A stretch of 64,000 nt of DNA from an uncultured delta proteobacterium. GTDB lineage: Bacteria > Desulfobacterota > DSM-4660 > Desulfatiglandales > HGW-15. A program made the position numbers and the translations under genes. Shown here in pieces: positions 1 to 64,000 of the stretch (within the stretch, counting starts at the first letter, position 1; each line of letters begins with the position of its first letter). The notes below the pieces were generated by a model that was given only the letters and a program-made list of their open reading frames with translations, searched no databases and had not been told where the DNA came from. The DNA lies in NCBI GenBank assembly GCA_963707125.1, contig CAVPOU010000004.1, positions 511,234-575,233 of the forward strand, in the 5' to 3' direction.

Positions 1-10
1 GATTCTATAC

Positions 11-102
11 AGAAGAATGGAATGATGGAAGAATGGAAAAAACAGGAGACAAAACAGAACAAGAAGCACCCACGAAAACACGAAAGTACGAAAGCACGAA
101 AG
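11..102. repeat. Short-word tandem arrays at window edge (8-nt period: ATGGAAnn x3 at 16-40; CACGAAAG-type x4 at 71-102)
   Basis: Read directly: 'acg' recurs at 72, 80, 88 and 96. cacgaaaa/cacgaaag/tacgaaag/cacgaaag are contiguous. Confidence 0.8.
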
Positions 103-169
103 AAGAGGGGGGGCAGAGAAACCTGGCCTGCATTTCTAGAGTTCGTATGGAAAGGATGAAATTAGATCT

Positions 170-2110
170 ATGGCGAAGAATTTGACACAAAAGATCCTTG
201 AAGCTCACCTTGTGGAGGGAAAGCTCGTTCCCGGTGAAGAAATCGGGATACGGATCGACCACACCCTTCTTCAAGATGCGACAGGCACAGTGGCCATGCT
301 GGAGTTCGAGTCTCTAGGGATTGACTCGGTGAAGATAGAAGTCGCCGCCCAGTACGTGGACCACAACCTTCTGCAAACAGACAACAAAAATGCGGACGAC
401 CACCGATACCTTCAAACCGCCTGCAGCCGCTACGGAATCCATTTCAGCCCGGCGGGGAACGGCATTTCCCACCAGGTTCACATGGAGCGTTTCGGGGTTC
501 CCGGCAAAAGCATCCTCGGGTCGGACAGCCACACGCCCGGCGCCGCAGGCGTGTCCATGCTGGGCATGGGAGCCGGAGGGCTTGATGTGGCGCTGGCCAT
601 GGCCGGCCGGCCTTACCATCTTCCATGCCCGAATGTCCTGGGAGTGAAGCTTGCCGGATCTCTGCCGGATTGGGTGAGCGCCAAGGACGTGATCCTGGAG
701 ATGCTCCGGCGCTATGATGTGAAGGGGTGCGTTGGGAAAATCGTCGAGTACCACGGGCCTGGGGTCAGGAGTCTTTCCGCCACAGACCGGGAAACCATTG
801 GGAACATGGGAACGGAGCTCGGAGCTACAAGCACCGTTTTTCCCTCTGATGAAAACACACGTGCCTACTTGGAAGCCCAGGGCAGAGGGGGTGTGTACCG
901 AGAACTTCATTCGGATGAGGGCGCTGCATATGATGAATATGCGGAGATCAATCTGTCCTCACTGGAGCCATTGATCGCCTGTCCTTCTTCTCCCGGGAAT
1001 GTGGTCCCTGTGCGGGAGGTGGCCGGCATCAAAGTGGATCAGGTGATCATCGGAAGCAGTGTCAACTCGTCTTTCCGGGACCTCATGGTGGTGGCCAAGA
1101 TTCTGGAAGGCAGGCATCGGCATCCGGATACCTCCCTGCACATCAATCCAGGAAGCAACCAGGTTCTTGAAAATATTTCACATCAGGGAGGTCTTGCCTT
1201 GCTTCTTCGTGCCGGCGCCCGCATCCACCAATCCGGTTGTCTGGGGTGTATCGGCATGGGCCAGGCGCCCGGCACAGGGCAGGTGAGCCTTCGTACGTTT
1301 CCGCGAAATTTTCCAGGCCGCTCCGGCACCAAGGATGACCGCGTGTATCTCTGCTCTCCGGAGACAGGAGCCGCGGCTGCGCTGAAGGGAGTGATCACGG
1401 ATCCCCGTGACCTGGGAAAGGAAATGAAATATCCGAGAATCACAGATCCCAAGGAATATCTCGTCGACAGCGAGTCCGTCGTTTCCCCTTCAGAGGAGCT
1501 TCGCAGGACGGAGGTCGTCAGGGGTCCCAACATCAAGCCTTTGCCGAAGATGGATCCTCTTCCTGAGACGCTGGAGGGGAAGGTCGTGATCAAGGTGGGA
1601 GACAACATCTCTACGGATACGATCATGCCTGCGGGGAGCAATGTGCTTCCTCTTCGATCCAACATCGAGGCGATCAGCGAGTTTGTTTTTTACCAGATTG
1701 ATCCGGAGTTTTTCAAGGAGAGCAAGGAAGCGGACAGTGTCGTCGTCGTGGGAGGAGAGAACTACGGCCAGGGTTCAAGCCGAGAGCATGCAGCCCTTGC
1801 ACCGCGTTATCTGGGAGTCCGTGTGAAGATCGCCAAGAGCTTTGCCAGGATTCACAAGGCCAACCTTTGCAACTTCGGCATCCTGCCCCTCATCCTCAAA
1901 GACGCGAAAGACTATGATCGTTTCAGCAAAGGGTCTCGCGTCGTCCTCACGGGGGTCCGAGAGCGCATTGCAAAGGGGGAAAAGGAAATCCCTGTGGAGG
2001 TCGACGGGTATCGTGTGATCACCCTCCTTGATGTGTCGGAAAGACAGCGCAAGCACCTGCTGGCAGGAGGAACGCTGAATTATGTGAAGCAGGAATTGAA
2101 AAGTGCCTAA
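170..2110 (+). CDS. Aconitate hydratase (646-aa short aconitase type)
   Basis: Aconitase-family motifs in translation: IDHTLLQDATG, GSDSHTPGAAG, the CLGCIGMG Fe-S ligand region, and the swivel-domain GENYGQGSSREHAA. The full-length ORF starts at ATG 170. Confidence 0.9.
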   Translation: MAKNLTQKILEAHLVEGKLVPGEEIGIRIDHTLLQDATGTVAMLEFESLGIDSVKIEVAAQYVDHNLLQTDNKNADDHRYLQTACSRYGIHFSPAGNGISHQVHMERFGVPGKSILGSDSHTPGAAGVSMLGMGAGGLDVALAMAGRPYHLPCPNVLGVKLAGSLPDWVSAKDVILEMLRRYDVKGCVGKIVEYHGPGVRSLSATDRETIGNMGTELGATSTVFPSDENTRAYLEAQGRGGVYRELHSDEGAAYDEYAEINLSSLEPLIACPSSPGNVVPVREVAGIKVDQVIIGSSVNSSFRDLMVVAKILEGRHRHPDTSLHINPGSNQVLENISHQGGLALLLRAGARIHQSGCLGCIGMGQAPGTGQVSLRTFPRNFPGRSGTKDDRVYLCSPETGAAAALKGVITDPRDLGKEMKYPRITDPKEYLVDSESVVSPSEELRRTEVVRGPNIKPLPKMDPLPETLEGKVVIKVGDNISTDTIMPAGSNVLPLRSNIEAISEFVFYQIDPEFFKESKEADSVVVVGGENYGQGSSREHAALAPRYLGVRVKIAKSFARIHKANLCNFGILPLILKDAKDYDRFSKGSRVVLTGVRERIAKGEKEIPVEVDGYRVITLLDVSERQRKHLLAGGTLNYVKQELKSA

Positions 2111-2124
2111 AGTTGAAAAAGGGG

Positions 2125-2331
2125 AAGACAGCAGAAAGCAGGTCCACGGCGCAGGGTGCACCGGAGGACAGAAAAAGTAATCAGTAATCAGTTGCCAGTG
2201 ATCAGTTAGGAGGACCGGTGGCACGGACAAACGCGAATTTCGTTTGTCCGTGGGCGTGCACGATGCAACGGACAGCGCGTCAACGCCCAATGTCCAATGA
2301 TAAATGCTCAATGCCAAATGTTCAATGCTCC
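2125..2331. repeat. Composite intergenic repeat block between acn and gltA: AATCAGT heptads (2176-2207), H1 hairpin (2217-2256), CAATGnn heptads x6 (2287-2331)
   Basis: Stem CACGGACAAAC (2222-2232) pairs with GTTTGTCCGTG (2242-2252). The run caatgtc/caatgat/aaatgct/caatgcc/aaatgtt/caatgct is contiguous. Confidence 0.85.
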
Positions 2332-2342
2332 AGGAGGTTCTC

Positions 2343-10549: not shown

Positions 10550-10624
10550 CCTTCGACAAGCTCAGGGCAAGCTCACCCATCACTCGTTGAAAGGTTTCGG
10601 AACTAGCCGCGACTACAAATTAAC

Positions 10625-10701: not shown

Positions 10702-10871
10702 AGCATAGCCGAAACCAAATCCAAAGCACTAAATCCGAAATCCGAAACAAATTCAAATGACCAAAACCAGTTGAAACCCAAGCGGGAGAAAACGCTTAAG
10801 AGGATTTCGAGGCATACACCATTTGGAGTACAAAGGCATTATAAACCTGGGATGCAGGATATCCAGCTTTT

Positions 10872-11672: not shown

Positions 11673-11949
11673 AGCGGCTACCTCCGAAGTCAATTGGAAG
11701 AGAGACGAACATTTTCAAACAACATCAAGACAGAGGGTTCAAGGTCTTTACAGCCGGAGGTCCCTCTTTCCGTTTGACAATCCCCGGGCTTTTCTTGATA
11801 TTCGGCTTCAGGATTCAGGAAGATCAATCGTTTCAACATCCGATAGTTTTGGAATTTATATCGCAAAGTTCCAAGATGATCAACATAAAGCTTCAAGAGG
11901 TGAACAAGTTTTGTGGCAGCGTGCAAAATTCTCCAGGAGGTGAGTCATT

Positions 11950-12291
11950 ATGATCGTTAGAAATTTGAATGACAGAGAGGTTGTAGAGACCACATACCTT
12001 GCCCACGGCGGGGCCATAGCGCAGATGATCTTGGATCGCAGGATTCTCAAAGAAATAGGTTTTCTAGCGGTTGCAAAGCTGGAAAGGGGAAGGACCATAG
12101 AAAGTCATAGAGATCCTATGGAGGAAATATACTTCGTCTTGAGCGGGGAGGGGGAGATGTCCGTGGATGAGGAGACGAGGCATGTACGTCCCGGCGACGC
12201 CACCTGGATTCCCACAGGATCGGCTCACAGTCTTACGAACTCGTCAGAACAAGATCTCCTCATCCTGGTGGTTGCCTCTTCAAACTGGTGA
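11950..12291 (+). CDS. Cupin domain protein
   Basis: 113 aa with two cupin motifs (ESHRDPMEEIYFVLSGEG ... PGDATWIPTGSAHSL). GGAGG precedes the ATG. Confidence 0.75.
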   Translation: MIVRNLNDREVVETTYLAHGGAIAQMILDRRILKEIGFLAVAKLERGRTIESHRDPMEEIYFVLSGEGEMSVDEETRHVRPGDATWIPTGSAHSLTNSSEQDLLILVVASSNW

Positions 12292-13544: not shown

Positions 13545-14583
13545 CATCAAGCAAATAAGGGATAGGACGTCCGCCCCAAGGGACAGTGCCCCGGCAAAGG
13601 ACGGAGAGGCCAGCCGGTTATGGCTGAGCGATACGCAGTTTTCAGAGCTCGGTAGGAAAGAGGACCGGACGCCTGAAGACATAAGCGCTGAGCGGGATTC
13701 CTCCGATGTGGCTGTGCTCTATGAGAAGTTCACGCGATCAGCGAAGGAGATCCAGGAAAAAGTGACAAGCGAACAGGGTGTCGCCTCCGCTCCCATTCTA
13801 GCGGATCTCCATACCGTCATTGACCGCGATCTTATCCAGCCTCTTTTCGAGCACGCGATGTCCAAGTCGGGAGACTGGAAAGACATGTCACTTCACAGTG
13901 TCGAGGTGACTCTGGCCGCTCTCATGGTGGGCAAAGGCATAGGCTATGACACAAAAAAGCTTCTGGAGATTGGGCTTGCTGCCTTACTAGAGAATGTGGG
14001 CATGTATCGGATCCCGGAAGGGATCCTTCAAAAGCCGACCAAGCTTGAGACAGAGGAAAGAGACCGCATCAGAGAACACCCTGAGATAAGTGCGAAGATC
14101 CTTTCTCGTCTCGGGGATCGGTATGAGTGGTTGGCTGAGGTCGCCTTGCAGGTGCATGAACGCGCGGACGGCTCAGGTTACCCAAGGGGGCTAAAAGGGT
14201 CTGAGATCTCTGAAATCGCTTCGATCATAGGCCTTGTCGATACCTATGTGGCCATGATCAGAAAAAGAGCGTATCGAGACGGAATCCTGCAACCGGATGC
14301 GATCCGATTCATCCTCAAGGAGGCAAAGGTCCAGTTTCAGCCCAAGATCCTCAAAGCCTTTCTGAATTCCATTTCTCTATTCCCTTACAATACCTATGTG
14401 AAACTGAACAACAAATCTGTTGGGAGAGTGATCTCTACGGACAGGAATCACCCATTGCGTCCGATAGTCGAAGTCCTTTTTGACGGCTTGGGAAACAAAC
14501 CGGAGAGAAAGGAAATCGTCCGTTTATCAGAGAACCCTCTTCTCTACATCGTTCAAACGGTCGATGAGAAAGATCTGACATAG
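13528..14583 (+). CDS. HD-GYP domain protein with degenerate metal-binding residues
   Basis: HERADGSGYPRGL is present. The canonical LLHDIGK reads LLENVGM (13985-14005), and HHE reads VHE. The start overlaps the upstream stop. Confidence 0.75.
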   Translation: MVRFSDIKQIRDRTSAPRDSAPAKDGEASRLWLSDTQFSELGRKEDRTPEDISAERDSSDVAVLYEKFTRSAKEIQEKVTSEQGVASAPILADLHTVIDRDLIQPLFEHAMSKSGDWKDMSLHSVEVTLAALMVGKGIGYDTKKLLEIGLAALLENVGMYRIPEGILQKPTKLETEERDRIREHPEISAKILSRLGDRYEWLAEVALQVHERADGSGYPRGLKGSEISEIASIIGLVDTYVAMIRKRAYRDGILQPDAIRFILKEAKVQFQPKILKAFLNSISLFPYNTYVKLNNKSVGRVISTDRNHPLRPIVEVLFDGLGNKPERKEIVRLSENPLLYIVQTVDEKDLT

Positions 14584-20465: not shown

Positions 20466-20580
20466 GGTGTCTCACCCCCACCTGGCCTCCCCCATCGAGG
20501 GGGAGGAAACTATTAGTGGTCGCACAGAATTCCCCTCCCCTTGCGGGAGGGGCTAGGGGAGGGGGAAGCAAAAGGGGTAT
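20466..20580 (+). repeat. G/C-rich double-hairpin intergenic element (copy 1 of 2)
   Basis: GTGTCTCACC...CCTCCCCCATCGAGGGGGAGGAAACTATTAGTGGTCG...GAATTCCCCTCCCC-TTGC-GGGAGGGGCTAGGGGAGGGGGAAGCAAA. Nearly identical to 37741-37880. Confidence 0.85.
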
Positions 20581-21296: not shown

Positions 21297-21323
21297 GATT
21301 ACCCCCCAGCTCAAGAAAAAGGA

Positions 21324-21399
21324 TTGGAGTATAGGAGTACTGCAGTATTGGAGCGATGGGGTTTACCATTACTCCATTACTCCGATACTCCATTACTCC
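21324..21399. repeat. Inverted octamer arrays: GGAGTAnn x3 (21324-21353) facing nnTACTCC x4 (21366-21399)
   Basis: 'agta' recurs every 8 nt on the left and 'tactcc' every 8 nt on the right. The right array overlaps the last codons and stop of the upstream subunit gene. Confidence 0.85.
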
Positions 21400-22795
21400 G
21401 TTTCTTCATTTTCTCGTATTCCCACAAAGCCGCCATGGTTTTTGCTGCTCTCTCAGGGGTGGGGACATTGATCAGAGCGCCTCCTTCTTCGAGACGGCGC
21501 ACCTCCTCATCCCAAATTCCAGGAGGAGCGATCAGACAGGCGACAACAGGCTTCTGCTGTTTCCATTTCAGCAAGAGCTCGGAGAAGCCCGATATCGCGT
21601 CCCTGTTTGCCGATGCGAACATCATGAGGATCAGGATGGCATCCACATCGCTGTCCTCCATCACCGCCCTGATGATACCCTCGATCGCCGAAGCGTTATA
21701 CCATGCCGGCCCCATGTCCACGGGGTTGGTACGCAGGGCGAGAGGGGGAAGGAGTTCATTGATCACTCGCTGAGTTTCAGGATGGAACGTGGCGATCTCC
21801 ATCCCATCGGCCTCACAGACGTCCGAGGCCGCCATCCCAGGGCCTGCTTGTCCGGAAAGGATCGCAACTTTCCTGCCCTTAGGAAGCGGACAAAGGGCCA
21901 GAGCCCGGGCTGCATCCAAAAGCCTTTCTGCACTGTCCACGTAGAGGACCCCTGACTGTTTGAGAGCCCCTTCATAGATTTCATGCCTTCCGGCTAAGGA
22001 GCCCGTGTGAGAAAGAGAGGCTTGATCTCCAGCGCGAGAACTCCCGGTTTTGTATGCAACAACAGGTTTCGCGAAACGGGTTTGCTTCGCCGCCTCCATG
22101 AGCCTCCTCGGTTCATCGATGCCTTCAAGATAAAGAGCAAGAACCCGTGTGTCCGGATCGCCCATCAAATAGGTGACCATTTCGGGGAAGTCGACATTGA
22201 GACGGTTCCCCAGGCCAACGATCTTGCTGACGCCTGCGTTCTGTCGCATGGCCATGAAGCCCATGAGATGAGAGATGCCTCCACTCTGGCTCACCAGGGC
22301 GATACCCCCTTTGGGCAGCCATGAGAACTCAGGCGTAAAGGAAGCGTTCAGGTGGATGTGAAGATTGACCATCCCGAAAGTGTTCGGGCCAATGACCGGG
22401 ATGCAGGCCTTGTTTGCCAGATCGGCCAGGGTGTTCTGGAGAAGGGTTCCCTGGGAATCGTCGATTTCCCTGAAGCCCGCGGAGATCAGCACAATGCCTT
22501 TCACCCCTTTCCGAGAACACTCCTGAAATATTCCTGGAACCAGCTTTGCAGGCAAGACGACAATGGCAAGATCAATGGCACCCGAGAAATCCGCAATCGA
22601 TGAAACCGCGGGAAGACCCATGACCGACTTGGCACCCGGGTTAACAGGAACGATCGTCCCTTTGAAGCGACCGGAGGTCAGGCTTTTCATCACGTGGAAC
22701 CCGAGCTTGTCGGGATTTTCTGAAGCCCCGATCACTGCAACCGTATGAGGGTTGAATAGGGTTTTCAGATTTTGGAGCAAAACAGGATTGCTCAT
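21377..22795 (-). CDS. Acetyl-CoA synthetase (ADP-forming) alpha / CoA-binding + ligase-CoA subunit
   Basis: NPHTVAVIGASENPDKLG...IVPVNP...LISAGFRE. Start at ATG 22795 is preferred; the ORF is open to 22831. Confidence 0.8.
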   Translation of the reverse strand: MSNPVLLQNLKTLFNPHTVAVIGASENPDKLGFHVMKSLTSGRFKGTIVPVNPGAKSVMGLPAVSSIADFSGAIDLAIVVLPAKLVPGIFQECSRKGVKGIVLISAGFREIDDSQGTLLQNTLADLANKACIPVIGPNTFGMVNLHIHLNASFTPEFSWLPKGGIALVSQSGGISHLMGFMAMRQNAGVSKIVGLGNRLNVDFPEMVTYLMGDPDTRVLALYLEGIDEPRRLMEAAKQTRFAKPVVAYKTGSSRAGDQASLSHTGSLAGRHEIYEGALKQSGVLYVDSAERLLDAARALALCPLPKGRKVAILSGQAGPGMAASDVCEADGMEIATFHPETQRVINELLPPLALRTNPVDMGPAWYNASAIEGIIRAVMEDSDVDAILILMMFASANRDAISGFSELLLKWKQQKPVVACLIAPPGIWDEEVRRLEEGGALINVPTPERAAKTMAALWEYEKMKKRSNGVSE

Positions 22796-23643: not shown

Positions 23644-23653
23644 GAACAACCCC

Positions 23654-23897
23654 ATGGAGTATTGGAGTACTGGAAAAAATCCTCACAGTCGTCACTCCCG
23701 CGAAGGCGGGAGTCCAGAACTTCTTGATTCTCCTGGATTCCCGTTTTCACGGGAATGACGGAAAAGGGCGTTTTCCGACTTTTTGCGAAGCGTCAAGGGT
23801 GACTATCGAAAAAAATGGAGTGCTGGAGCAATGGGAAAGGAATCGTGCACAACACGCCTCCATCACTCCAGTACTCCAATACTCCAGTACTCCGCAG
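23654..23897. repeat. Composite element: GGAGTAnn octamers (23654-23673), conserved core (23690-23800, reverse copy of 26775-26920), nnTACTCC octamers (23858-23897)
   Basis: Read directly. Core contains tcactcccgcgaaggcgggagt, ggattcccgttttcacgggaatgacgg and gactttttgcgaagc. Confidence 0.8.
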
Positions 23898-23900
23898 TCT

Positions 23901-24335
23901 TTATGCTTTCTCGAACACGTAGTTCACTTGTCCGTTGGGAAGCTTGTTGACGACGGTCTTGACCTCCATTCCCACCTTGATCTCGTTTTCAGGGATGTTC
24001 TTGGAAAGCCTCCCGAAGACCTTGTAGGTCCCGTAATCCGCAAGAGCGATCGCATAGGGAAGGTCGGCTTCAAAGCCTACCGGCCCGTATTCGAGCTTGC
24101 TGTAAGTCACGAGTTTTCCCTTCCCGGTCACTTCAAACCATTCCACGTCGCTGGTCAGGCACTTGTAGCAGTCCGCTCTTGGGGGAAAGAACGTCAGGCC
24201 GCAGCCTTTGCATTTCGTTCCCATGACCTTGCCCTGTTCCAGATAACCGACAAAGTCATTGGTCTTCGTGATGGCGGTGAAGCTCACCGTTCCGAATTTC
24301 TTGAACCGAAGATCCGCTTCTTTTTTCGTAGCCAT
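23901..24335 (-). CDS. DUF35 OB-fold/Zn-ribbon protein (thiolase partner)
   Basis: Zn ribbon CKGCG...CYKC. ATG 24335 follows GGGAGGTG, and the gene starts 4 nt after the thiolase stop. Confidence 0.8.
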   Translation of the reverse strand: MATKKEADLRFKKFGTVSFTAITKTNDFVGYLEQGKVMGTKCKGCGLTFFPPRADCYKCLTSDVEWFEVTGKGKLVTYSKLEYGPVGFEADLPYAIALADYGTYKVFGRLSKNIPENEIKVGMEVKTVVNKLPNGQVNYVFEKA

Positions 24336-25506: not shown

Positions 25507-25720
25507 AAGCAACCTCCCAATAATGATTTGCACCTTTCAAGATAAATCAGCGCTTAGATGAAAGGCGATCTCCTGTGAGACACTTTCAGTGACGAGTAAC
25601 GGATAAAGTAACAGATAACGATTAACACAAGCGTCGCCGCTTCAACCAGAGCCAACCCCGGAGAAAGCCCTCCTCGAAACATAAAATATCAATATAAGAG
25701 AAGAAGGAATGCCGGTCAAG

Positions 25721-26774: not shown

Positions 26775-26920
26775 ATGCTCTCGCAAAAAGCCGTAAAATG
26801 ACCTCTCCTGTCATTCCGGCGAATCCCGGATCGGGGTCCGGGACAGGCGCCGGAATCCAGGAATAACAAGCCCTCCTGGACCCCGGCTTACGCCGGGGTG
26901 ACGGCTTTGATGACTTTTTA
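26775..26920 (+). repeat. Conserved intergenic element (forward copy of the 23690-23800 core)
   Basis: cgcaaaaagccgtaaaatgacc...gtcattccggcgaatccc...ccggaatccaggaataacaag...ctggaccccggcttacgccggggtgacgg. Aligns to the reverse complement of 23690-23800. Confidence 0.8.
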
Positions 26921-31033: not shown

Positions 31034-31160
31034 GCAGTCCGGAAAACCAGTAAGCAGTAGGCACTAAGCAGTAGGCAGTAAAGGTCAATAAACCCAGCAA
31101 CCCCTTTTCTTTTTTGTGTTTACTGCTTACTGCGTACTGCATACTGCCTACTTCTTGCTT
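31028..31160. repeat. Inverted heptamer arrays: CAGTARG units (31028-31082) facing nTACTGC x4-5 (31118-31160) around a T-rich loop
   Basis: cagtaag/cagtagg/cactaag/cagtagg/cagtaaa are contiguous, and 'tactgc' recurs every 7 nt on the right. The block lies between convergent genes. Confidence 0.85.
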
Positions 31161-31164
31161 CCTC

Positions 31165-31569: not shown

Positions 31570-31636
31570 GCCAAAATCCTCCCGTGGAGATATTGCGTTA
31601 TTTGAAATCAGGTATTATTCTTTCAACAAGTCTTTA

Positions 31637-31730: not shown

Positions 31731-31747
31731 TTTCACGAGGTTAAGAA

Positions 31748-32090: not shown

Positions 32091-32471
32091 CTAGGGGGCG
32101 AACTTGTCCGCCTTTTCTATCATTCCATAGAGCATTTTGTTTACTTCATCGTACCTGCTGGACAGATCGCTATGCTTGGCATCATCGAGGTATCCAAAAT
32201 CTTTCGCAAAATCCAACCAAACTTCCGTTTCTCCAGCCTCACCAGCAGCATCAACGATTTTAGCGACGAACATCTTCTGGTATTTTCTTTTCTTCCACGC
32301 CTCGGCAATGTTGGCCGGGACACTCCTTGACGAGCGCCGGATCTGATCAGTGAGTGAATACTTTTCGTCCTTTGGGAAAGGCTTTGTTGTTTCATGGATC
32401 TCCAGAGCCAGCTTGTAAGACAGCTGATAGACTTTGAGATCCCGATAACCCCTGTATGGTTCCTTCGCCAT
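32091..32471 (-). CDS. Four-helix-bundle protein (23S rRNA intervening-sequence protein / TIGR02436-like family)
   Basis: YRDLKVYQLSYKLALEIH...LTDQIRRSSRSVPANIAEAW...AAGEAGETEVWLDFA. Confidence 0.8.
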   Translation of the reverse strand: MAKEPYRGYRDLKVYQLSYKLALEIHETTKPFPKDEKYSLTDQIRRSSRSVPANIAEAWKKRKYQKMFVAKIVDAAGEAGETEVWLDFAKDFGYLDDAKHSDLSSRYDEVNKMLYGMIEKADKFAP

Positions 32472-32480
32472 TTTCCTTGT

Positions 32481-32552
32481 TGCGTACTCCTTTATTTTTT
32501 TCTGCTTACTTTTTCCTCTTTCTGCTTACTCCTTACTGCTTACTGCCTACTG
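32481..32552. repeat. TACTGC/TTACT word array, reverse-complement partner of 31987-32052
   Basis: gcgtactcc...ctgcttact...ctgcttactccttactgcttactgcctactgg. Confidence 0.75.
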
Positions 32553-32555
32553 GTC

Positions 32556-37740: not shown

Positions 37741-37880
37741 GTGTCTCACCGATAACTTACCCAGGCAACTTCCCATCACCCCCACCTCGCCTCCCCCATC
37801 AAGGGGGAGGAAACTATTAGTGGTCGATAAGAATTCCCCCTCCCCTGGTGGGAGGGGTTAGGGGAGGGGGAAGCAAACAG
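37741..37880 (+). repeat. G/C-rich double-hairpin intergenic element (copy 2 of 2, with ~30-bp insertion)
   Basis: Shares GTGTCTCACC, CCTCCCCCATCAAGGGGGAGGAAACTATTAGTGGTCG and GGGAGGGGTTAGGGGAGGGGGAAGCAAA with 20466-20580. Confidence 0.85.
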
Positions 37881-37894
37881 GGATTGGAGAAGTT

Positions 37895-41416: not shown

Positions 41417-41460
41417 TTGACAGGATATTATATATAACGCATTATATATGCGCATTATTA
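41417..41460 (+). promoter_or_regulatory. Putative mazEF promoter/operator: TTGACA plus tandem ATTATATAT(A)RCGC repeats
   Basis: TTGACA at 41417-41422. Direct repeats at 41427-41440 and 41441-41453, plus a partial third copy. Confidence 0.45.
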
Positions 41461-41481: not shown

Positions 41482-41724
41482 ATGAGTACGGTAAGGATGA
41501 ACATCACGATCCCTGAGCAGTTGGCCCGCAAGCTGGACCAGATGGTAAGCCCAAGAAAAAAAAGCACCTTCATTGTTAAGAGTTTGGAGGAGTGCATTCA
41601 CAGGATGGAACGCGAAGAGCTCAAAGCCAATCTTAAGGAAGGATACAAAGTAAGAAGGGACGAAGGGCTAAGGATTGCCGGGGAGTTTCGAAAAGTGGAT
41701 CTGGAGGGATGGGATGAGTATTAG
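41482..41724 (+). CDS. mazE: RHH/CopG-type antitoxin
   Basis: 80 aa. MNITIPEQLARKLD is a ribbon-helix-helix start. The gene overlaps the toxin start. Confidence 0.75.
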   Translation: MSTVRMNITIPEQLARKLDQMVSPRKKSTFIVKSLEECIHRMEREELKANLKEGYKVRRDEGLRIAGEFRKVDLEGWDEY

Positions 41725-42058
41725 AAGAGGGGAGATCTATATTGCAGCCCTTGATCCTGTGGTCGGCAGAGAAATCTCCAAGACGCGTCCTGTGGTGGTG
41801 GTTTCTAACGACTTGAATAATCAATTCGCGGCCACGGTGACTGTACTCCCGATCACCTCTATGAATCTTGACAAGATTTATCCTTTTGAGGTTTTTCTGC
41901 CAAAAGGCTCCGGCGCCCTACCCAAGGATTCGAAAGTCAAAGCAGATCAGATACGCACCCTCGATAAAGCTCGGATAGCCAAACTGTTGGGGAAAGTGGA
42001 TCAGAAAAAAATCACGGCGATCGATAAGGCGGTGAAAATACATTTGGGGCTGGAGTGA
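41714..42058 (+). CDS. mazF: MazF/PemK-family endoribonuclease toxin
   Basis: IRRGEIYIAALDPVVGREISKTRPVVVVSND...VLPITS. ATG 41714 overlaps the antitoxin stop. Confidence 0.85.
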   Translation: MSIRRGEIYIAALDPVVGREISKTRPVVVVSNDLNNQFAATVTVLPITSMNLDKIYPFEVFLPKGSGALPKDSKVKADQIRTLDKARIAKLLGKVDQKKITAIDKAVKIHLGLE

Positions 42059-42504
42059 TGAAAACAAGAATACAGGAGACTGAATACAGTATGAAAGCAG
42101 ACCACAGAGGACCCCAGTTGAATAGTCCTTCGCCCCAGTGAAATAGGCCTTCAGGATTTCACCCCGATGGAATAGAACTGCAACATCATTCCATAGGGCA
42201 GGCGGGGCAAAATTCAACGGGGCAAGCCGGATTATCAGGATTATTGTGTTTCGAAACATAAAGAGCAAACATCTTTGATCCTGTTAATCCTGTCTAAAGA
42301 AGCTCGCATCTTACCTCAGTTCGCTCGACCCCTCATCGATCGGAAATTGCGCATGCAATGGGGGCGTGGACTCGTGAAATTCTGGAACAAGCTTGATGGG
42401 TTCAGAAGTTTCAGGGTACTAATGCGAGAGGCACAAGCAGGCACGGACAAACCTAAATCGTTTGTCCGTGCCACCCAGTCTTGTCACTCGTTACTCGTCA
42501 CTGA
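42059..42504. repeat. Composite repeat block: ACAG heptads, expanded H2 hairpin (42112-42228), GGATTAT/ATCCTGT inverted words (42229-42298), H1 hairpin (42439-42476), CACTCGT heptads (42484-42504)
   Basis: Read directly. H1 reads gcacggacaaacctaaatcgtttgtccgtgccaccc. Confidence 0.8.
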
Positions 42505-43905: not shown

Positions 43906-44254
43906 GGCGCAAAACCCTCGGCTTTCAGCGGTCAGCTGTCAGCTTCAAAGAAAGAATACAGAAGACAGAATTCAGAATCAGAACCCCAATCACGAAAACA
44001 CCCCAGTTGAATCGTCCCCCTGACGGGGGAATTCAACGGGACAGGCGAAAACTGGAAAACACGAAAGAACATTGCACCACGGACAAGCAAAATCAGCTTG
44101 TCCGTGCCACCCAGTCTTTTCAAGCTTGTCCGCTCTTAGCAAGCATCCCCATTGTTACCACGGACAACCATCCTCCCGAGGCAGATAAGAATCAGTTTGT
44201 CCGTGCCACCGCATCGCAATCTCTATGCTCTCTGCTCCACGCCCTACGCTGTCT
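43906..44254. repeat. Composite repeat block: CAGCGGT words, ACAGAAG heptads (43950-43985), H2 hairpin (44000-44050), GAAAACnn octamers, two H1 hairpins (44077-44111, 44158-44210)
   Basis: Read directly. Confidence 0.8.
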
Positions 44255-47058: not shown

Positions 47059-47290
47059 GGCTTGCCCGTTATGCGTTGTTCGCTATCCGTTGTTCGCTAT
47101 CTGTTATCCGTTATCTGTTTATATGACAATAAGCGTTCGCCCTCACGTTCTGTCTTCTTGTTTCTTGTTTTGAACATTTTAGGCACTTTAGTCACTTCCC
47201 TATGCTGACCTCCGACTTCTGACCTCTGGTGTTCTGTCATCTGATTATTACTGACTGTTCACTGGTTTCATGCTGTCTTTTGTATTCTTT
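47059..47290. repeat. Composite word arrays: CGTTRTY heptads (47067-47122), TTCTKGT words, GGCACTTTAGTCACTTC (47182-47198), CTGACYT heptads
   Basis: cgttgttcgctatc is repeated twice, then tgttatc/cgttatc/tgtttat follow. A 17-nt block is identical to 56692-56708. Confidence 0.8.
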
Positions 47291-47291
47291 C

Positions 47292-47540
47292 CTATTTCAT
47301 ACTTCCCAAATATGCAAGGTCCTTTTCCTGCGTGTTCTTGGTTCCTATGGCCACGATCAGTTTCCTGGCCTGAGAATCCTTCTGATAATAGAGCCTGCCC
47401 GAGTAGGCGAAGGGGATCTCGATGAAATCCGTCTTTCCGCCTTTGCCCAGATATCTTTCCAAGCCGTTCAGTGTCAAAATATAGCAAACCGGCGGCAAGA
47501 AGATGCACAGAAAGAGTATTTTGAAAGGGAAATTCTTCAT
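47292..47540 (-). CDS. Hypothetical small secreted/membrane protein
   Basis: MKNFPFKILFLCIFLPPVCYIL is a hydrophobic N-terminus. No clear RBS, and overlapping alternative frames exist. Confidence 0.35.
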   Translation of the reverse strand: MKNFPFKILFLCIFLPPVCYILTLNGLERYLGKGGKTDFIEIPFAYSGRLYYQKDSQARKLIVAIGTKNTQEKDLAYLGSMK

Positions 47541-47548
47541 TAAGCATA

Positions 47549-47872
47549 CAGTAGCGATCAGCAACAGCCAGTAATCAGTGATCAGTAATCAGTGATCAGT
47601 GATCAGTGATCAGTAATCAGTAATCAGAAGAAGCTATCAGCCCTTCGACCATGCTCAGGGTCTGCGACAGGGCAGGCGAAAACTGGAAGACACGAAAGAA
47701 GGTCCTCTCACAGACAAAAAAATTCGTTTGTCCGTGCCACCAAGTCTTTTCTCGCCTCACTGCTTTGCCCGCTCTTGATGAGCATCCGTCACTCGATCGT
47801 TCTATGCGTTTATCTATACTGGCCTGGCCTTTGGAAAATATTCCTCTGTGCTCTCTGTGAGAGACAAGGTTT
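47549..47872. repeat. ATCAGTR heptamer array (8 contiguous units, 47574-47629) followed by CCTTCGA-CTCAGGG motif (47641-47665), GAAAACTGG/CACGAAAG words and H1 hairpin (47707-47743)
   Basis: 'atcag' starts at 47574 and recurs every 7 nt eight times. Confidence 0.9.
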
Positions 47873-50889: not shown

Positions 50890-51035
50890 CTGCCCTTCGA
50901 CCCCTGGATTCAGGTCGACACGGTGCCCGACCCTACTCAGCTTCATCCTTCGATACCTCAGGGCGAACGGAAACAGTGTTTTGTAAGTGTTTGATTTTCC
51001 GTTCGTGGTGAGGCACCGAACCATAAACGGAAAGA
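50890..51035. repeat. CCTTCGA-CTCAGGG hairpin element (arms 50947-50970 / 50999-51022) plus a partial copy at 50893-50920
   Basis: ccttcgatacctcagggcgaacgg faces ccgttcgtggtgaggcaccgaacc. Confidence 0.75.
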
Positions 51036-51780: not shown

Positions 51781-51874
51781 CTTTGCCCCCCTTGGTGAGC
51801 CTGAAGATTAGCATAGCAATCCTAGTGCTATGCTGTTCTTCGCCCTCAATGCAGGCGTGTGGCCGCAACGCCAT

Positions 51875-51930
51875 GAGTAAGCAGTATGCAGTAGGGAGTA
51901 TGCAGAATGGATTACTGCCTACTGCTTACT
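51875..51930. repeat. Heptamer-array hairpin: AGTAnnn x4 facing nnnTACT x3
   Basis: The left 21 nt match the reverse complement of 51910-51930 at 18 of 21 positions. Confidence 0.8.
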
Positions 51931-52020
51931 TAAATTAAGATGGCTCTAACGAGACCACGCTCCCCGGCTTGGGAAGTTTAGGCCACGACGATTGAGCGGA
52001 GAGGCACGGCGGGCGGAAAG

Positions 52021-52136: not shown

Positions 52137-52145
52137 CAAAATCTA

Positions 52146-52220
52146 GTAAGCAGTACGGAGTAAGCAGTAGGCAGAAACCAATACTCCCCTACTCCGGTAC
52201 TCCAATACTCCTGTACTCCA
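52146..52220. repeat. Word arrays in the tRNA-Gly/tRNA-Cys spacer: AGTAnnn heptads x4 (52146-52174) then TACTCCnn octads x5 (52181-52220)
   Basis: 'agta' recurs every 7 nt, then 'tactcc' every 8 nt. Confidence 0.85.
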
Positions 52221-52226
52221 AAATTT

Positions 52227-55155: not shown

Positions 55156-55159
55156 ACAA

Positions 55160-55195
55160 AAGAATACAGAAGACAGGAGACAGAAGACAGAATGA
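55160..55195. repeat. ACAGRAG heptamer array
   Basis: 'acag' recurs four times at 7-nt spacing. Confidence 0.8.
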
Positions 55196-55222
55196 CTGCA
55201 AAATCACTCCACGGGGCGGGCC

Positions 55223-56383: not shown

Positions 56384-56701
56384 GGTCTCTCAATCTCCTT
56401 CGATAAGTGCCTAAAATTGAAAGGCAAAGAACTCAAGGCCTGAATGAGCATGAGTGCCTGGAGTGTATAAATTTGAAAGGTCAGGTCAATAAAATACACG
56501 AAAGAACCTACACTCACGGACAAACAAAGTTCGTTTGTCCGTGCCACCCGTCTTGCTCACTGATCACTGGTGACTGATTACTGGTTTCTTGCTGTCTTCT
56601 TTTCTTGCCGTGCACCCTGCGCCGTGCGCCGTGCACCCCTCCTATTAAACCCTTTAGCGCACTTTAGACATTTTAGCCTACGGCCCGGAGGGGCACTTTA
56701 G
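56384..56701. repeat. Composite block: H1 hairpin (56514-56550), CACTGRT heptads (56558-56584), GTGCRCC heptads (56608-56638), CACTTTAG words (56650-56708)
   Basis: Read directly. Confidence 0.8.
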
Positions 56702-57505: not shown

Positions 57506-57750
57506 GACACAACCCCCTACGAAACCCTATCTCCCGTTTGGTGGCACGGACAAGCGAACTGAGCTTGTCCGTGCCGCCAGAGATCTTGTGCTTCTTCGTG
57601 CTCACTTCCCATTGTCCAACTTCCTGTATCCTTTCACGGACAAACAGAATTCGTTTGTCCGTGCCACCCTCATTTCTTTGCATTAACCAGCATGCAGAAT
57701 CCACCCACGGACAAGCAAAGTTCGCTTGTCCGTGCCACCGTATGCCTGCT
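57506..57750. repeat. Three H1 hairpins in 245 bp (57540-57578, 57635-57668, 57705-57740)
   Basis: Each reads CACGGACAARC-loop-GYTTGTCCGTGCC. Confidence 0.9.
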
Positions 57751-58626: not shown

Positions 58627-58668
58627 AACCAATCCTCCTCCCCTCTTGATTGAAAGAACAAAAAACAA

Positions 58669-59030
58669 AGAATACAGGAGACAGTAGCCAGAAGACAGTA
58701 GTCAAAATCAAAGGCTCGACCACGAAAGCACGAAAACTGGAAAACACCCCAGTTGAATAGTCCCGCTCCCGCGGGAATTCAACGGGGCAGGCGAAAAAGA
58801 GCATATCCGACAGGATTTACAGGATCGACACGATGTTTAATCTTTGGCTTTGAAATACAAGAATCCTGATCATCCTGTTAATCCTGTCTAACTCTTTCTT
58901 TTGCCTCAAGCGGAGCGCTCCTCGAATTCCCGCAGCGCGGGGATGCTCCTCAAGCGAAGCGCTCATCCTTCAGCGGTCAGCCGTCGGCGGTCGGTCGTCG
59001 CTCATTGTCAGCGGTCTGCCGTCGGCGTTC
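58669..59030. repeat. Composite block: ACAG heptads (58668-58705), CACGAAAG words (58721-58748), H2 hairpin (58746-58797), ACAGGAT/ATCCTGT inverted words, CTCAAGCGRAGCGCTC x2, CAGCGGT heptads (58971-59030)
   Basis: Read directly. The last array lies inside the lysA ORF tail. Confidence 0.8.
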
Positions 59031-60289: not shown

Positions 60290-60392
60290 AAAATAAGAAT
60301 AACAGAATACAGAATTCAGAAAAAAAACGGTGCACGGTACACGGTCCAAGGTGCACGGCCAAAACAAACGACAAATGATGGATGAAAAATGG
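60290..60392. repeat. ACAGAAT words and ACGGTNC heptads (60327-60358)
   Basis: acggtgc/acggtac/acggtcc/aaggtgc/acgg are contiguous. Confidence 0.75.
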
Positions 60393-62200: not shown

Positions 62201-62429
62201 ATTTATTCCTTAGCAGAAGGTGATTTCTAGCGTTGCGAGGAGTATGTGTTGCCGCGATCAGCTTCAGTAAATTCGAAGCACGAAATTCGAAATCCGAAAC
62301 AAAATTACAAATTCAAATGTTCCAATGTCCAAAAGAGGAGTCTGTTGGAAGAGGACTCTTGTTTGTGACATTAGAATTTTTGTCATTAGATATTGTTTCG
62401 AGTTTCGATATTCGAATTTCGAATTTGCA
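62201..62429. repeat. Inverted heptamer arrays: AAATYCG/ATTCAAA/ATGTCCA units (62269-62331) facing TTTCGAn units (62395-62428)
   Basis: Nine contiguous 7-nt units on the left and four on the right. Lies between argG and argH. Confidence 0.85.
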
Positions 62430-63635
62430 TTACTTTCTTCCCAAGAGTGTTGCTATTTTTAGCCTGAGAGCACTGAGCCGGATGAAGCCTTCCGCGTCTT
62501 TCTGGTTGTAAACCTGGTCTTCCTCAAAGGTTGCGAATCCCGAGTGGTAAAGGGATTTCTCGGACTTCCGTCCCACCACCATGCAGTTCCCCTTGTAGAG
62601 CTTGAGCCTCACCACGCCTGTGACGTTTCCCTGGGCTTCATCCATCAACGTCTGCAGCATTTTTCGCTCAGGCGCGAACCAGTAACCGTAGTAAACCATC
62701 TCGGCATAACGCGGCACAAGACTGTCCCTGAGGTGCATCACTTCGCGGTCCATGGTAATCGACTCCATGGCCTGATGCGCCGCCCTGAGGATCGTTCCTC
62801 CGGGCGTCTCGTAAACTCCCCTGGACTTCATCCCCACATAACGGTTCTCCACGATGTCCACCCTTCCCACGGCATTCCTGCCGCCCAGGGTGTTCAGGCG
62901 GCCAAGAAGACTTGCCGGCGACAGTCGCTCCCCGTTCACGGACACAGGGTTTCCTTCCTTGAATTCCACCTCGATGTAGGTGGAACGATCAGGCGCATCT
63001 TCGGGAGCCACGGACATGACAAACATGTCCTTTGAAGGTTCGTTCCACGTGTCCTCGAGGATCCCTCCTTCGAAACTGATGTGAAGGAGGTTCCTGTCCG
63101 TGGAATAAGGCTTCGCTTTGGTCACAGGAATTTTGATCTTCCTGGATTTGGCGTACTTGACGAGATCTTCCCTGCCCTTGAAATCCCAGATCTTCCAGGG
63201 GGCGATGATCTTCAGGTGAGGGGCCAGAGCCATGTAGGTCATCTCAAAGCGAACCTGGTCATTGCCCTTACCTGTTGCGCCATGGCTCACGGCATTGGCC
63301 TTAAACTTTCTTGCCACCTCCACCTGCTTCTTGGCGATGATCGGCCTTGCCAGAGATGTTCCCAAAAGATAACCCGATTCGTAAACTGCGTTGGCCCTCA
63401 GAGCAGGGAACACGAAGTCCCGGACAAATTCCTCTTTGAGGTCTTCAATGACGATATCCGAAGCCCCTGTTTTGAGCGCCTTTTCCCTCACCTCTCCCAG
63501 CTCATCGCCCTGGCCCACATCTGCGGCAAAGCAAACGACAGGGCACTGGTAGGTTTCAATGAGCCAAGCCAAAATAACCGACGTGTCCAGCCCTCCTGAA
63601 TAGGCCAGAACGATTTTATTGATGTCGCGTTTCAA
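62430..63635 (-). CDS. argG: Argininosuccinate synthase
   Basis: AYSGGLDTS. 401 aa. Confidence 0.95.
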
Positions 63636-63700
63636 GTCGAATTTCTCCTAATCAAATATTTGATGATCTATCTGGATTCCCGCCGTAACCCTCCCGTTTG

Positions 63701-63790
63701 CCCTTCGATACCTCAGGGCGAACGCAAAATCAAACGGTCGCAGAAAATGGCACCCCGTTCGTGCTGAGGTATCGAAGCACGAACAGTTTG
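63701..63790. repeat. CCTTCGA-CTCAGGG hairpin element
   Basis: cttcgatacctcagggcgaacg (63703-63724) faces cgttcgtgctgaggtatcgaag (63756-63777). Confidence 0.85.
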
Positions 63791-63813
63791 TGTGACGCCT
63801 CCCGAACGGATCG

Positions 63814-64000
63814 TTACCTCCGCAGAATCAACTTCTCCAGCACCGCCATGTGGAGGTGCATCTTGTTCTCCGCCTGGTCAAAGACCACCGAGTTCGGCCC
63901 GTCCATAACGTCGGAAGTAATTTCCTCGCCACGGTGAGCGGGCAGGCAGTGCATCACGAGGACATCGGGCCTTGCAGCTTTCAAGAGAGCCTGGTTCACC
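63814..64000 (-). CDS. argF: Ornithine carbamoyltransferase, C-terminal part (gene continues beyond window)
   Basis: [10 protein letters not shown] motif. The ORF is open to the window edge. Confidence 0.85.

Follow-up and report, generated by a model that had tools for sequence, protein, structure and literature searches.

Purine-first arrays of 7- and 8-nt words in the spacers of an uncultured Desulfobacterota lineage, and the bracketing of an IVP gene by one word family

We analyzed a 64,000-nt stretch of contig CAVPOU010000004.1 from an uncultured delta proteobacterium of sulfate-reducing type (Desulfatiglandales, Desulfobacterota), below called the window, whose intergenic gaps hold tandem arrays of 7-nt and some 8-nt words. 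The arrays exceed chance expectation, share a common anatomy in which the purine-rich arm of an inverted pair comes first, turn over between close relatives, and in one case bracket a gene for a 23S rRNA intervening-sequence protein (IVP). The reading we prefer, with about even confidence, is that the arrays are arms or half-arms of foldback elements that resemble rRNA intervening sequences (IVS) and are of the kind described as short tandemly repeated repetitive (STRR) sequences or long simple sequence repeats (SSRs), that they form dispersed families with a GCAGTAR stem around the IVP gene, and that they are mainly tolerated as selfish DNA. Heptamer arrays have been catalogued since 1990 as STRR sequences, long SSRs, GGGAATC repeats and Geobacter "global regulator sites" without an accepted origin or function. 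Any explanation must meet three rules seen here, namely a stacked fixed order of words, purine-first polarity and the IVP-gene bracket.

Tandem word arrays in the intergenic gaps

Tandem arrays were located with Tandem Repeats Finder (TRF; periods 7, 8, 14 and 16). A period-7 array was called at three or more copies with at least 78% identity, with dinucleotide shuffles of the gaps as the null. Bases in the gaps match at lag 7 with a frequency of 0.299 versus a baseline of ∼0.262, with echoes at lags 14 and 21, and the lag autocorrelation of coding sequence shows period 3 only. The 12.3 kb of gaps contain 25 period-7 arrays, compared with 0.38 ± 0.6 in shuffles, and the 51.7 kb called as coding sequence contain 4, giving densities of 2.04/kb and 0.08/kb, respectively. 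Period-8 arrays number 4 versus 0.08 expected, and periods 4–6 and 9–12 show no excess over shuffles in the gaps. A period-7/8 signal above shuffled gaps, as a preliminary description of this DNA had predicted, is thus borne out by both the lag-7 match and the array counts. Per 10 kb there are 4.5 period-7 arrays here and 0.1 in 923 kb of other genomes (∼40-fold). The arrays are spread over the whole window and over the syntenic loci (loci, not whole genomes) of six relatives, L081, L082, L083, L164, L165 and L166, whose ArgH proteins are 86–96% identical.

TRF reports a repeat of period 7, 8, 14 or 16 at essentially every place where the preliminary description had put an array. Two are weaker: 25589-25627 holds only a period-12 repeat (25595-25618), and 10709-10765 is clean only at 10731-10747. 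The statement that almost every gap longer than ∼60 bp carries arrays went too far, as they occur in 21 of the 42 gaps of at least 60 nt and cover ∼11% of gap bases. They are mostly intergenic, but the array at 58971-59030 lies inside the 3′ end of the lysA frame, and that at 60292-60358, strictly taken not intergenic either, is the leader before the true lysA start. The phenomenon itself is, as described, non-coding, of period 7/8 and unlike CRISPR arrays, since the units are contiguous and 7–8 nt long and are not 23–50-nt repeats with unique spacers. An assembly artefact is contradicted by the independent assembly L083, which has the same arrays at 99% identity, and by finished genomes of cultured cyanobacteria with the same architecture. 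Such arrays break metagenome assemblies, may be mistaken for CRISPR arrays and obscure or extend the start and stop codons of genes, lysA, gltA and folK being examples in the window.

At least 10 different words occur within the 64 kb. The proposed division of each word into a fixed core and variable positions holds for units pooled by family: in ACAGNAK positions 3, 4 and 6 are nearly invariant and positions 5 and 7 are variable (chi-square p = 8e-15), and the same test gave p = 6e-14 for GGAGTAnT and p = 2e-9 for CACGAAAR, the pooled units being non-independent because some arrays are orthologous or copies of one element. Array by array the division does not hold, the two top columns having a mismatch share of 0.65 versus 0.63 in the null (p = 0.12, not significant). 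None of the word families of the window has the G3 tract that a G-quadruplex needs. A role of the arrays as hypermutable contingency loci was considered and rejected, as unit numbers are unchanged between the window and L083 despite 4–7% third-position divergence.

Foldbacks, polarity and the IVP gene cassette

Four inverted pairs had been named as possible long imperfect hairpins and all four fold as such (21315-21415, z -9.6; 62260-62432, z -7.6; 31034-31164, z -5.2; 31630-31735, z -3.8). The arms have a mismatch every 7–8 nt, and single-pair hairpins reach z values of -3 to -10. That arrays are "usually paired" is only partly correct: many pairs fold, but there are only 8 clear inverted pairs among the 44 arrays of the window, and ∼40% of arrays have a partner. 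Gaps with only unpaired arrays (43906-44000, 47059-47291, 55156-55222 and 56384-56701) fold with z near 0. Neighbouring arrays of the same word in the window and the six relatives are inverted in 24 cases and direct in 6.

Words are also stacked in a fixed order. The first tier order runs, from outside to inside, ACAGNAK (7 nt), TGGAATnn (8 nt), CACGAAAG (8 nt) and a centre GAAGAGGGG-loop-CCTTTTT, followed by the complements in mirror order. It is seen at L166 14756-15055, L164 4324-4603, L165 15201-15452 and L081 15524-15805, the last with an extra outer GCCTAAAAT tier. The second order runs GCACGGY, ACAGAAR, ATCAGTR and then a hairpin like REP (repetitive extragenic palindromic) sequences, with half-elements in the window at 2145-2257 and 56510-56639. 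Each order is repeated at unrelated loci. Hairpins of this type can take up a whole spacer, beginning at the stop codon and ending just short of the Shine-Dalgarno sequence, as at L166 14756-15055 (-108.5 kcal/mol, z -6.5) and L081 15524-15805 (-104.6 kcal/mol, z -8.6). Because composite palindromes occur as halves, many "unpaired" arrays are half-elements. The ∼100-nt CACGAAAG module is present in 7 copies, two of them identical, in 21 kb of L166; other relatives have 4, 3, 2 and 1, and the window has no more than a half copy. Of 18 modules, 17 are co-oriented with the genes. Two L166 modules, 13563-13666 and 13721-13824, are 100% identical and lie 158 nt apart in one spacer, the product of a recent tandem duplication that included the linker. 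A second L166 spacer, 11920-12179, holds two diverged copies.

Word turnover in orthologous spacers, a comparison that had been suggested at the outset, takes the form of gain, loss and replacement of whole segments, and point substitution is not fast. The argG-argH spacer is 229–268 nt long with an AAATTCG foldback in the window and L083, and is 8–29 nt long and array-free in L081, L165 and L166. The dapB-aminotransferase spacer exists in three unrelated versions, being wholly different in L081 and L164 (282 vs 75 nt) although the flanking genes of these two are 98% identical at third codon positions. Spacer change between L081 and L164 is roughly at the synonymous (neutral) rate. L083 has a 39-nt palindromic insertion (323-361) just inside the AAATTCG hairpin, next to an arm, which is lacking in the window and thus represents an insertion polymorphism. 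This nested insertion and that in the loop of 23650-23900 (below) indicate that new elements tend to sit inside older hairpins, an insertion habit that would produce the layering of tiers. Slippage of units, as read from their differing numbers at the conserved lysA leader, occurs slowly.

In the window and the six relatives the purine-rich arm is first in every primary pair, and three seeming exceptions are junctions of two adjacent hairpins. The rule is valid on both strands because the reverse complement of a purine-first palindrome is also purine-first. Of the arrays lying up to 60 nt behind a stop codon, 35 are purine-rich and 10 pyrimidine-rich in the gene's sense (p = 2.5e-4), and of those up to 60 nt ahead of a start codon, 30 are pyrimidine-rich and 11 purine-rich (p = 0.004), both sets of counts being partly non-independent as orthologous loci are included. 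Purine-first pairs with words of their own also occur in a metagenome-assembled genome (MAG) of Blastocatellia and in another deltaproteobacterial MAG, and the class 3 sites of Geobacter metallireducens follow the rule, with site A 3′ of moaA and site B running into the AAGGAGAGG-ATG of the next gene. That polarity holds for words unable to form G-quadruplexes argues against a quadruplex explanation.

One foldback carries a gene. At 31983-32554 (- strand) a GCAGTAR arm (31983-32057) and a YTACTGC arm (32502-32554), as read on the + strand, enclose a gene at 32091-32471 (-) that belongs to PF05635 (23S rRNA intervening-sequence protein, "four helix bundle protein"; Pfam E = 1.8e-35) and has the PDB homologues 2GSC and 2RLD. 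Relative to the direction of this gene, the purine arm lies upstream and the pyrimidine arm downstream. A predicted long-range stem pairs both arms around the whole open reading frame (ORF) in minimum free energy (MFE) and centroid folds, and the flank-to-flank duplex has z -5.6. The neighbours are a small zinc-ribbon-like ORF and an FG-GAP gene, so the site is not helix 25/45 of 23S rRNA. The bracket recurs in four independent Desulfobacterota contexts, including the orthologous loci L167-L174 and three unrelated places: between FAD/Fe-S oxidoreductase and FlpD genes (L175-L179), between acyl-CoA synthetase and ABC permease genes (L194-L198), and next to a PIN/MazE pair (L199-L204). L194/L195 have a second IVP paralogue, with another word, AnTTAGCA, upstream of it; at 1201-2781 of these loci two IVP genes alternate with operon genes in the order acyl-CoA synthetase, IVP, ABC permease, IVP. 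In L170-L174 the IVP gene has the same neighbours (Memo, glyoxalase, a 78-aa ORF and FG-GAP) and a direction opposite to that in the window, which could be due to inversion of the loop between the arms or to independent insertion. A tblastn search of the syntenic and other collected loci gave no IVP gene beyond the loci fetched for IVP. Most close IVP homologues lie on contigs of 0.5–1.5 kb, as expected if flanking repeats break assemblies.

In a tblastn search of a plasmid collection, IVP genes were found almost only in cyanobacteria. Of 13 such plasmid loci, 8 have complementary arrays, purine-rich upstream and pyrimidine-rich downstream, with a flank duplex of z <= -4. Two more show the bracket by eye, and three have none. 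Each lineage has words of its own: GCAGGGG/GCAGAGG in Nostocales, GGAGATAA in Picosynechococcus and GGGAAAA in Geminocystis. In 50 kb of the Nostoc punctiforme plasmid pNPUN02 the IVP gene is the only one bracketed among 40 annotated genes, and the same 50 kb hold ∼14 period-7/8 arrays of some ten words, with two cargo-less purine-first pairs besides the IVP pair. In the Nostoc cassette the GGAG of the array runs straight into the ATG. In Xanthomonas campestris the start codon of an IVP homologue, XCC0516 (PDB 2GSC), is overlapped by GGGAATC repeat #15, with the preceding gene 6 nt away. The architecture of the cassette is conserved across phyla while its words are not.

In two of the cyanobacterial plasmid loci the IVP gene is part of a CRISPR-Cas locus. 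In L190 (Picosynechococcus PCC 7003) the IVP gene lies between cas10/cmr2 and cmr3, bracketed by GGAGATAA / TATCTCC arrays, and in L185 (Pseudanabaena) it lies next to cas2 in a CRISPR-Cas locus. A figure legend of Altae-Tran et al. 2023 names "23S rRNA IVP" among the domains linked to CRISPR arrays, a link that could reflect repeat finders picking up arrays such as these.

Elements and setting of the 64-kb window

The left half of a composite foldback opens the window (12-115, + strand; TRF), with TGGAATGA-type 8-mers at 12-42, four to five copies of CACGAAAG at 68-106 and the centre motif GAAGAGGGG. It matches the first 40 nt of the relatives' ∼100-nt CACGAAAG module at 95%, and its tier order is that of L164, L165 and L166. 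The left half of the second composite type, at 2145-2257 (+), consists of GTGCRCC, ACAGAAA, four copies of ATCAGTR (2171-2207) and the REP-like hairpin GGTGGCACGGACAAAC..GTTTGTCCGTG. Over 119 nt it shares 78% identity, and its tier order, with the reverse complement of 56510-56626. The composite half at 56510-56639 (+) comprises the REP-like hairpin, TCACTGA x4, CTGTCTT and GCCGTGC x4, which in the sense of the genes are purine tiers after the dapB stop codon. A stack of unpaired arrays at 47059-47291 (+; TRF, folding z -0.2), made of CGTTRTY x7.7, TTCTTGT, GACCTCT, YACTGAT and CTGTCTT, matches 56560-56598 in tier order. The longest and cleanest array of the window, nine unpaired copies of ATCAGTR, follows at 47566-47631 (+; TRF score 90–104, 92–93% matches). 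The 814 nt at 47059-47872, between genes for a tetratricopeptide-repeat protein and a response regulator, consist almost wholly of arrays and repeat elements with no credible gene; the array-flanked ORF 47292-47564 (90 aa) has no family match and was treated as spurious.

Among the simpler foldbacks, AAATTCG / CGAATTT at 62262-62432 fills most of the argG-argH spacer (MFE -60.3 kcal/mol, z -7.6). A degenerate AAATYCG copy of it lies beside tRNA-Arg at 10709-10811, with 89% identity over 35 nt to 62269-62303 and the non-array part AAATTCAAATGWCCAA in common. The GGAGTAnn / nnTACTCC foldback at 21318-21415 (MFE -44.6 kcal/mol, z -9.6) separates the two subunit genes of the ADP-forming acetyl-CoA synthetase. 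Another GGAGTAnn foldback, 23650-23900 (z -10.2), fills a whole gap from the stop codon to the next annotated start (gene 23901-24335), and its loop contains a nested palindromic repeat (23674-23790) that matches 26781-26919, a family of the ..CTCCCGCGAAGGCGGGAGTCCAG.. type. Cargo-less GCAGTAR hairpins are found at three places. That at 31034-31164 (GCAGTAR / YTACTGC) lies between convergent genes (z -5.2 on the + strand, -3.9 on the - strand), a short one occupies 51868-51935 (z -5.1), and at 52140-52224, between tRNA-Cys and tRNA-Gly, AGTAAGC 7-mers face TACTCCnn 8-mers (z -2.7 on +, -3.0 on -). A divergent gap holds the ACAGNAK / MTNCTGT foldback at 31630-31735 (z -3.8).

Several arrays adjoin or overlap the ends of genes. 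A CAATGnn array of period 7/14/21 (2287-2331, +; TRF) runs over the annotated start of citrate synthase, whose Pfam domain begins only at residue 24 of the ORF. At 42440-42504 (+) a REP-like hairpin followed by a GTCACTC array abuts a stop codon. Unpaired GCTGTCA x3.4 and ACAGAAK x4.6 at 43917-43985 (+; TRF, folding z ∼0) are rich in pyrimidines when read along the gene that they precede. So is the unpaired ACAGRAG x5 upstream of folK at 55156-55195 (+), where L081 and L164 have the same array in the same place. ACAGNAG x4–6 with CACGAAAG x3.5 at 58652-58748 (+) form, in the genes' sense, pyrimidine tiers leading to dapA. The CAGCGGT array inside the 3′ end of the lysA frame (58970-59030, +; TRF) gives LysA a translated C-terminal extension of 20 residues (..KENADGRPLTMSDDRPPTADR), with a similar tail in L082 and none in L164 or L166. 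At the other end of this gene, AATACAG x4.3 and ACGGTGC x4.6 (60292-60358, +; TRF) form the lysA leader, which in sense reads (CCGTGCA)n(CTGTATT)n and ends 3 nt before the true lysA start at 60289, the start not being the upstream TTG. No Shine-Dalgarno sequence is present at this start, unlike the clear AGGAG-type sites of the other genes of the string. In all seven genomes (the window and the six relatives) the arrays at lysA lead directly into a U-rich tract, TTCTCTTTTT-ATG. The leader arrays are kept in five of the six relatives with differing unit numbers.

Other repeat families share the spacers. The REP-like hairpin family, GGTGGCACGGACAAAC-loop-GTTTGTCCGTG(CCACC), has at least 9 copies in the window at 85–94% identity (2221-2257, 42440-42478, 44078-44112, 44185-44210, 47703-47741, 56510-56549, 57540-57578, 57634-57669 and 57702-57740) and none in the loci of the six relatives. 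The single dapA-dapB spacer contains three copies, and in every co-directional case the GGTGG side comes 5′ when read in the direction of the flanking genes. A ∼107-nt G/C-rich palindromic element (CCCCCACCTSGCCTCCCCCATCRAGGGGGAGGAAACTATTAGTGGTCG..) occurs at 20472-20577 and 37776-37882, 90% identical and both between convergent genes, and at other spacers in the relatives (L081 11378-11531, L164 7933-8006). A further family, CCCCAGTTGAATAGTCC..GGAATTCAACGGGGCAGGCGAAAACTGGAAAACACGAAAG, consists of a hairpin with a CACGAAAG-type tail (42112-42200, 43994-44070, 47658-47700 and 58740-58797; up to 90% identity over 58 nt). The small palindromic element CCCTTCGA-N-CTCAGGG... is found at 10550-10590, 47640-47665, 50942-51030 and 63694-63783 and at L083 323-361.

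The window has a G+C content of 53% and ordinary chromosomal genes, including aconitase, citrate synthase, fumarase, a Wza/Wzc/Wzy polysaccharide-export set, ADP-forming acetyl-CoA synthetase, thiolase, a sensor kinase, three tRNA genes and the string argG-argH-lysA-dapA-dapB-aminotransferase-folK. The closest proteins to its ArgH are 86–99% identical and metagenomic, the few named ones being labelled Desulfatiglandales or "Deltaproteobacteria". A cyanobacterial origin was ruled out both by these relatives, which come from Desulfatiglandales-like or "Deltaproteobacteria" MAGs, and by the highly iterated palindrome HIP1 (GCGATCGC), present twice versus 1.2 expected. A scan for intrinsic terminators gave 25 versus 22.4 expected with a single strong site, 52051-52024, that is not an array, and throughout the window canonical intrinsic terminators and promoters are neither in excess nor coincident with arrays. 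At the gathering threshold Rfam finds three tRNAs only in the whole window, with no rRNA and no array element matched. Cumulative GC skew has its maximum at ∼36–42 kb, with mainly + strand genes left of it and mainly - strand genes right of it, which could mark a replication terminus or merely reflect local operon orientation. A type II toxin-antitoxin-like pair at 41484-42058 (a ribbon-helix-helix-like small ORF, then a PemK/MazF toxin gene), with an AT-rich inverted repeat upstream at 41427-41458, is unrelated to the arrays.

Interpretation and comparison with known systems

In the model we propose, whose anatomy, polarity and turnover are shown by the data above, an element consists of a purine-rich array of 7–8-nt words, a centre and the reverse-complement, pyrimidine-rich array. 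Word families are stacked concentrically such that one spacer can form one long hairpin from the stop codon to just before the next ribosome-binding site (RBS). Families expand, vanish and are replaced faster than ∼5% synonymous divergence while unit numbers drift by slippage. The elements are probably co-transcribed with the flanking genes, because they fill intercistronic spacers of obvious operons and because most of the repeats in Xanthomonas are transcribed. They may act, or be tolerated, as RNA stem-loops comparable to rRNA intervening sequences, and their long stems would be likely substrates of RNase III. In the cassette the purine arm would supply a Shine-Dalgarno-like RBS and the downstream arm would fold back over it. 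The cargo-less GCAGTAR hairpins look like non-autonomous derivatives of the IVP cassette; were all cargo-less hairpins to descend from cassettes, purine-first polarity would be explained, because only that order places an RBS before the cargo in either orientation. Polarity may also owe something to the avoidance of Rho loading where the first arm is C-rich and of false RBSs near true starts. Persistence would be mainly as tolerated selfish DNA. It is possible that the arms are also recognized by a sequence-specific protein, perhaps the IVP protein.

An extension of this model, which we regard as doubtful, makes IVP proteins (PF05635, relatives of the Avd protein of diversity-generating retroelements) the missing partner of all such arrays. 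The ancestral unit would have been a purine arm with an RBS, an IVP gene and a pyrimidine arm. The protein would bind, maintain or spread stems of its own word, and the cargo-less arrays of Desulfobacterota, heterocystous cyanobacteria (STRR), Xanthomonas and others would be non-autonomous derivatives. If true, this would explain the purine-first order and give the 35-year-old STRR puzzle a testable cause. Among cultured organisms, Nostoc punctiforme, Anabaena PCC 7120, X. campestris and G. metallireducens allow a direct test of the bracket rule.

Several observations weigh against our preferred reading of the arrays as arms of tolerated selfish foldbacks. The 64-kb window has a single IVP gene and most of its word families are without gene cargo, it contains no transposase or RAYT (REP-associated tyrosine transposase) gene, and no flanking direct repeat was seen by eye as a target-site duplication, filled and empty spacers lacking a clean alignable boundary. 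Between the window and L083 the array-bearing spacers are 99.0–99.1% identical versus 92.6–95.8% at third codon positions, and this conservation hints at constraint rather than junk. An alignment of 15 copies of the CACGAAAG module shows no compensatory changes at 13 predicted pairs, although the test is uninformative because the arms hardly vary; nearly invariant arms with a variable loop fit sequence-specific recognition as well as pairing. Folding on the sense strand, better in 21 of 27 hairpins, was considered as a sign of RNA-level selection and rejected, since the effect is carried by one family of fixed orientation and the other families split evenly.

The spacers could instead hold host-beneficial intercistronic RNA devices that are not selfish DNA, such as RNase III sites, 3′-end stabilizers, Rho insulators or Shine-Dalgarno-independent leaders. 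The foldbacks do span exactly the distance from a stop codon to just before a RBS, their polarity is tied to stop and start codons under the same rule as in Xanthomonas, where most repeats are transcribed, and the lysA leader arrays, which five of the six relatives retain, stop 3 nt short of an ATG without a Shine-Dalgarno sequence. The higher identity of spacers than of synonymous sites in one genome pair and the better sense folding of 21 of 27 hairpins also speak for such devices. We nevertheless consider them unlikely, if a serious contender, as the same spacer is element-free or has an unrelated element in close relatives with unchanged gene order, covariation is absent, the hairpins are neither canonical intrinsic terminators nor matched in Rfam, and the folding bias vanishes outside one family. 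Binding-site arrays for an abundant sequence-specific protein would account for core positions that are conserved and variable positions that are consistent within each family, for nearly invariant arms beside variable loops in 15 copies, and for words common to different genera, as ACAGAAK here corresponds to the MTYCTGA of class 3 in G. metallireducens. Candidates would be IHF (integration host factor)/HU (Aklujkar et al.), a ribbon-helix-helix-type heptad binder on double-stranded DNA, or IVP itself. At least 10 words in 64 kb would, however, demand many proteins or very loose specificity, the words are wholly different between lineages with the same architecture, and pooled conservation could stem from a common ancestral element. 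Polarity tied to flanking transcription and translation signals is not explained by binding to double-stranded DNA, and we give this alternative a low probability. The omega protein of pSM19035 and ParG of TP228 bind contiguous 7- or 8-bp repeats, both direct and inverted.

A purely mutational by-product, in which 7-nt units are favoured by polymerase slippage, as Mrazek et al. 2007 proposed, and template switching at small hairpins already present copies expansions to the other arm with no element identity, mobility or function, would agree with the dominance of heptamers in long SSRs of many prokaryotes (Mrazek et al. 2007, as reviewed in PMC4679880), with unit numbers that vary between relatives and with per-array mismatches that are not significantly clustered. 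This is quite improbable in our view, because unrelated loci and different genomes have words, tier order and non-array centres in common, modules are duplicated, present or missing as wholes, arrays are stable between genomes that differ by 4–7% at synonymous sites, and a link to one gene family across phyla would be left unexplained. We find it hardly credible that the elements are non-B DNA (G-quadruplex, triplex or cruciform) serving DNA topology or genome stability, as proposed for GGGAATC, which forms G-quadruplexes with a preference for four units (Rehm et al. 2015, PMC4692102). Extrusion of cruciforms by inverted arrays is conceivable, but a mismatch every 7–8 nt disfavours this, and no word here has G3 tracts, yet architecture and position rule are as in Xanthomonas.

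Among known systems, the 23S rRNA intervening sequences of Leptospira and Coxiella carry an S23p/IVP ORF. In both cases a PF05635 gene lies in the loop of a long stem of flanking inverted repeats; the cassette described here differs in lying between protein-coding genes and in having a stem of tandem heptamers. Eukaryotic Foldback elements have long inverted arms of short tandem repeats. With these, with REP sequences and their composites (bacterial interspersed mosaic elements, BIMEs, and REPINs) and with MITEs (miniature transposable elements with inverted repeats), our elements have in common that they are short, palindromic and intergenic, form dispersed lineage-specific families, are polymorphic in presence or absence and are nested by insertion. 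Like MITEs they show terminal inverted repeats, multi-copy dispersal and presence/absence polymorphism. We saw no GTAG/CGTC tag, RAYT, transposase or target-site duplication here, and the one cargo gene found, that for IVP, is not known to encode a catalytic function. The array arms are periodic and 30–70 nt long, unlike REP stems, and the REP-like hairpin GGTGGCACGGACAAAC.. also lacks the GTAG/CGTC tag.

The earlier view that this organization was undescribed does not stand, as convergent pairs in Xanthomonas and paired sites in Geobacter have been published. Xanthomonas genomes have 70–75 convergent inverted GGGAATC array pairs each, and most of these repeats are transcribed (Rehm et al. 2015, PMC4692102). 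Like ours they are non-coding heptamer arrays of ∼4 units, situated between co-oriented genes and paired in inversion, with the purine (G)-rich array in sense within 50 bp after a stop and in antisense within 50 bp before an ORF. The repeat type is kept between species with variable unit number, and one array abuts XCC0516. In Xanthomonas there is one G-quadruplex word, whereas the window has at least 10 words that cannot form one, and nested multi-tier foldbacks and gene cargo have not been described there. In G. metallireducens, likewise of the Desulfobacterota in the broad sense, 24 + 21 + 8 pairs of sites (classes 1–3) with 3–5 tandem 7–9-nt words on opposite strands have been reported (Aklujkar et al. 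2009, PMC2700814). They lie at variable distance in 53 intergenic places, with A 3′ of one gene and B 5′ of the next. The class 3 word MTYCTGA corresponds, on the opposite strand, to our ACAGAAK/TCAGRAK family and has the same layout. The sites were read as putative IHF/HU sites and the classes were considered one by one, with no nesting, polarity rule or gene link reported. In marine Beggiatoaceae, cyanobacteria and Bacteroidetes, TAACTGA repeats (MacGregor 2015, PMC4679880) form arrays a few nt upstream of start codons, often without a canonical RBS, to which the lysA leader of the window is a comparable case. Their reverse complement TCAGTTA resembles our ATCAGTR/TCAGTAA family. Unlike our elements, they consist of a single word, in 169 direct sets and one indirect, and were proposed as a post-transcriptional regulator site.

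The likeness to STRR repeats of heterocystous cyanobacteria noted at the outset is fair. STRR sequences and long SSRs (Mazel et al. 1990; Mrazek et al. 2007, via PMC4679880 and PMC4692102) are likewise tandem heptamers, dispersed, non-coding and lineage-restricted. Published accounts stress three words (STRR1-3) and direct repeats. A diversity of words and inverted pairing were nevertheless no valid grounds for setting the window apart from STRR, since pNPUN02 of N. punctiforme has some ten words and three purine-first inverted pairs, with an IVP gene inside one of them. In the literature searched we found no description of a foldback and cargo organization for STRR, of a bacterial foldback or MITE with such arms or of repeat-flanked IVP genes, nor of a fixed tier order with whole-spacer foldbacks, of the generality of the polarity in words that do not form G-quadruplexes, or of the IVP cargo link. 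The kind of repeat to which these arrays belong is already known, and the window is a very dense new instance of it in an uncultured Desulfobacterota lineage.

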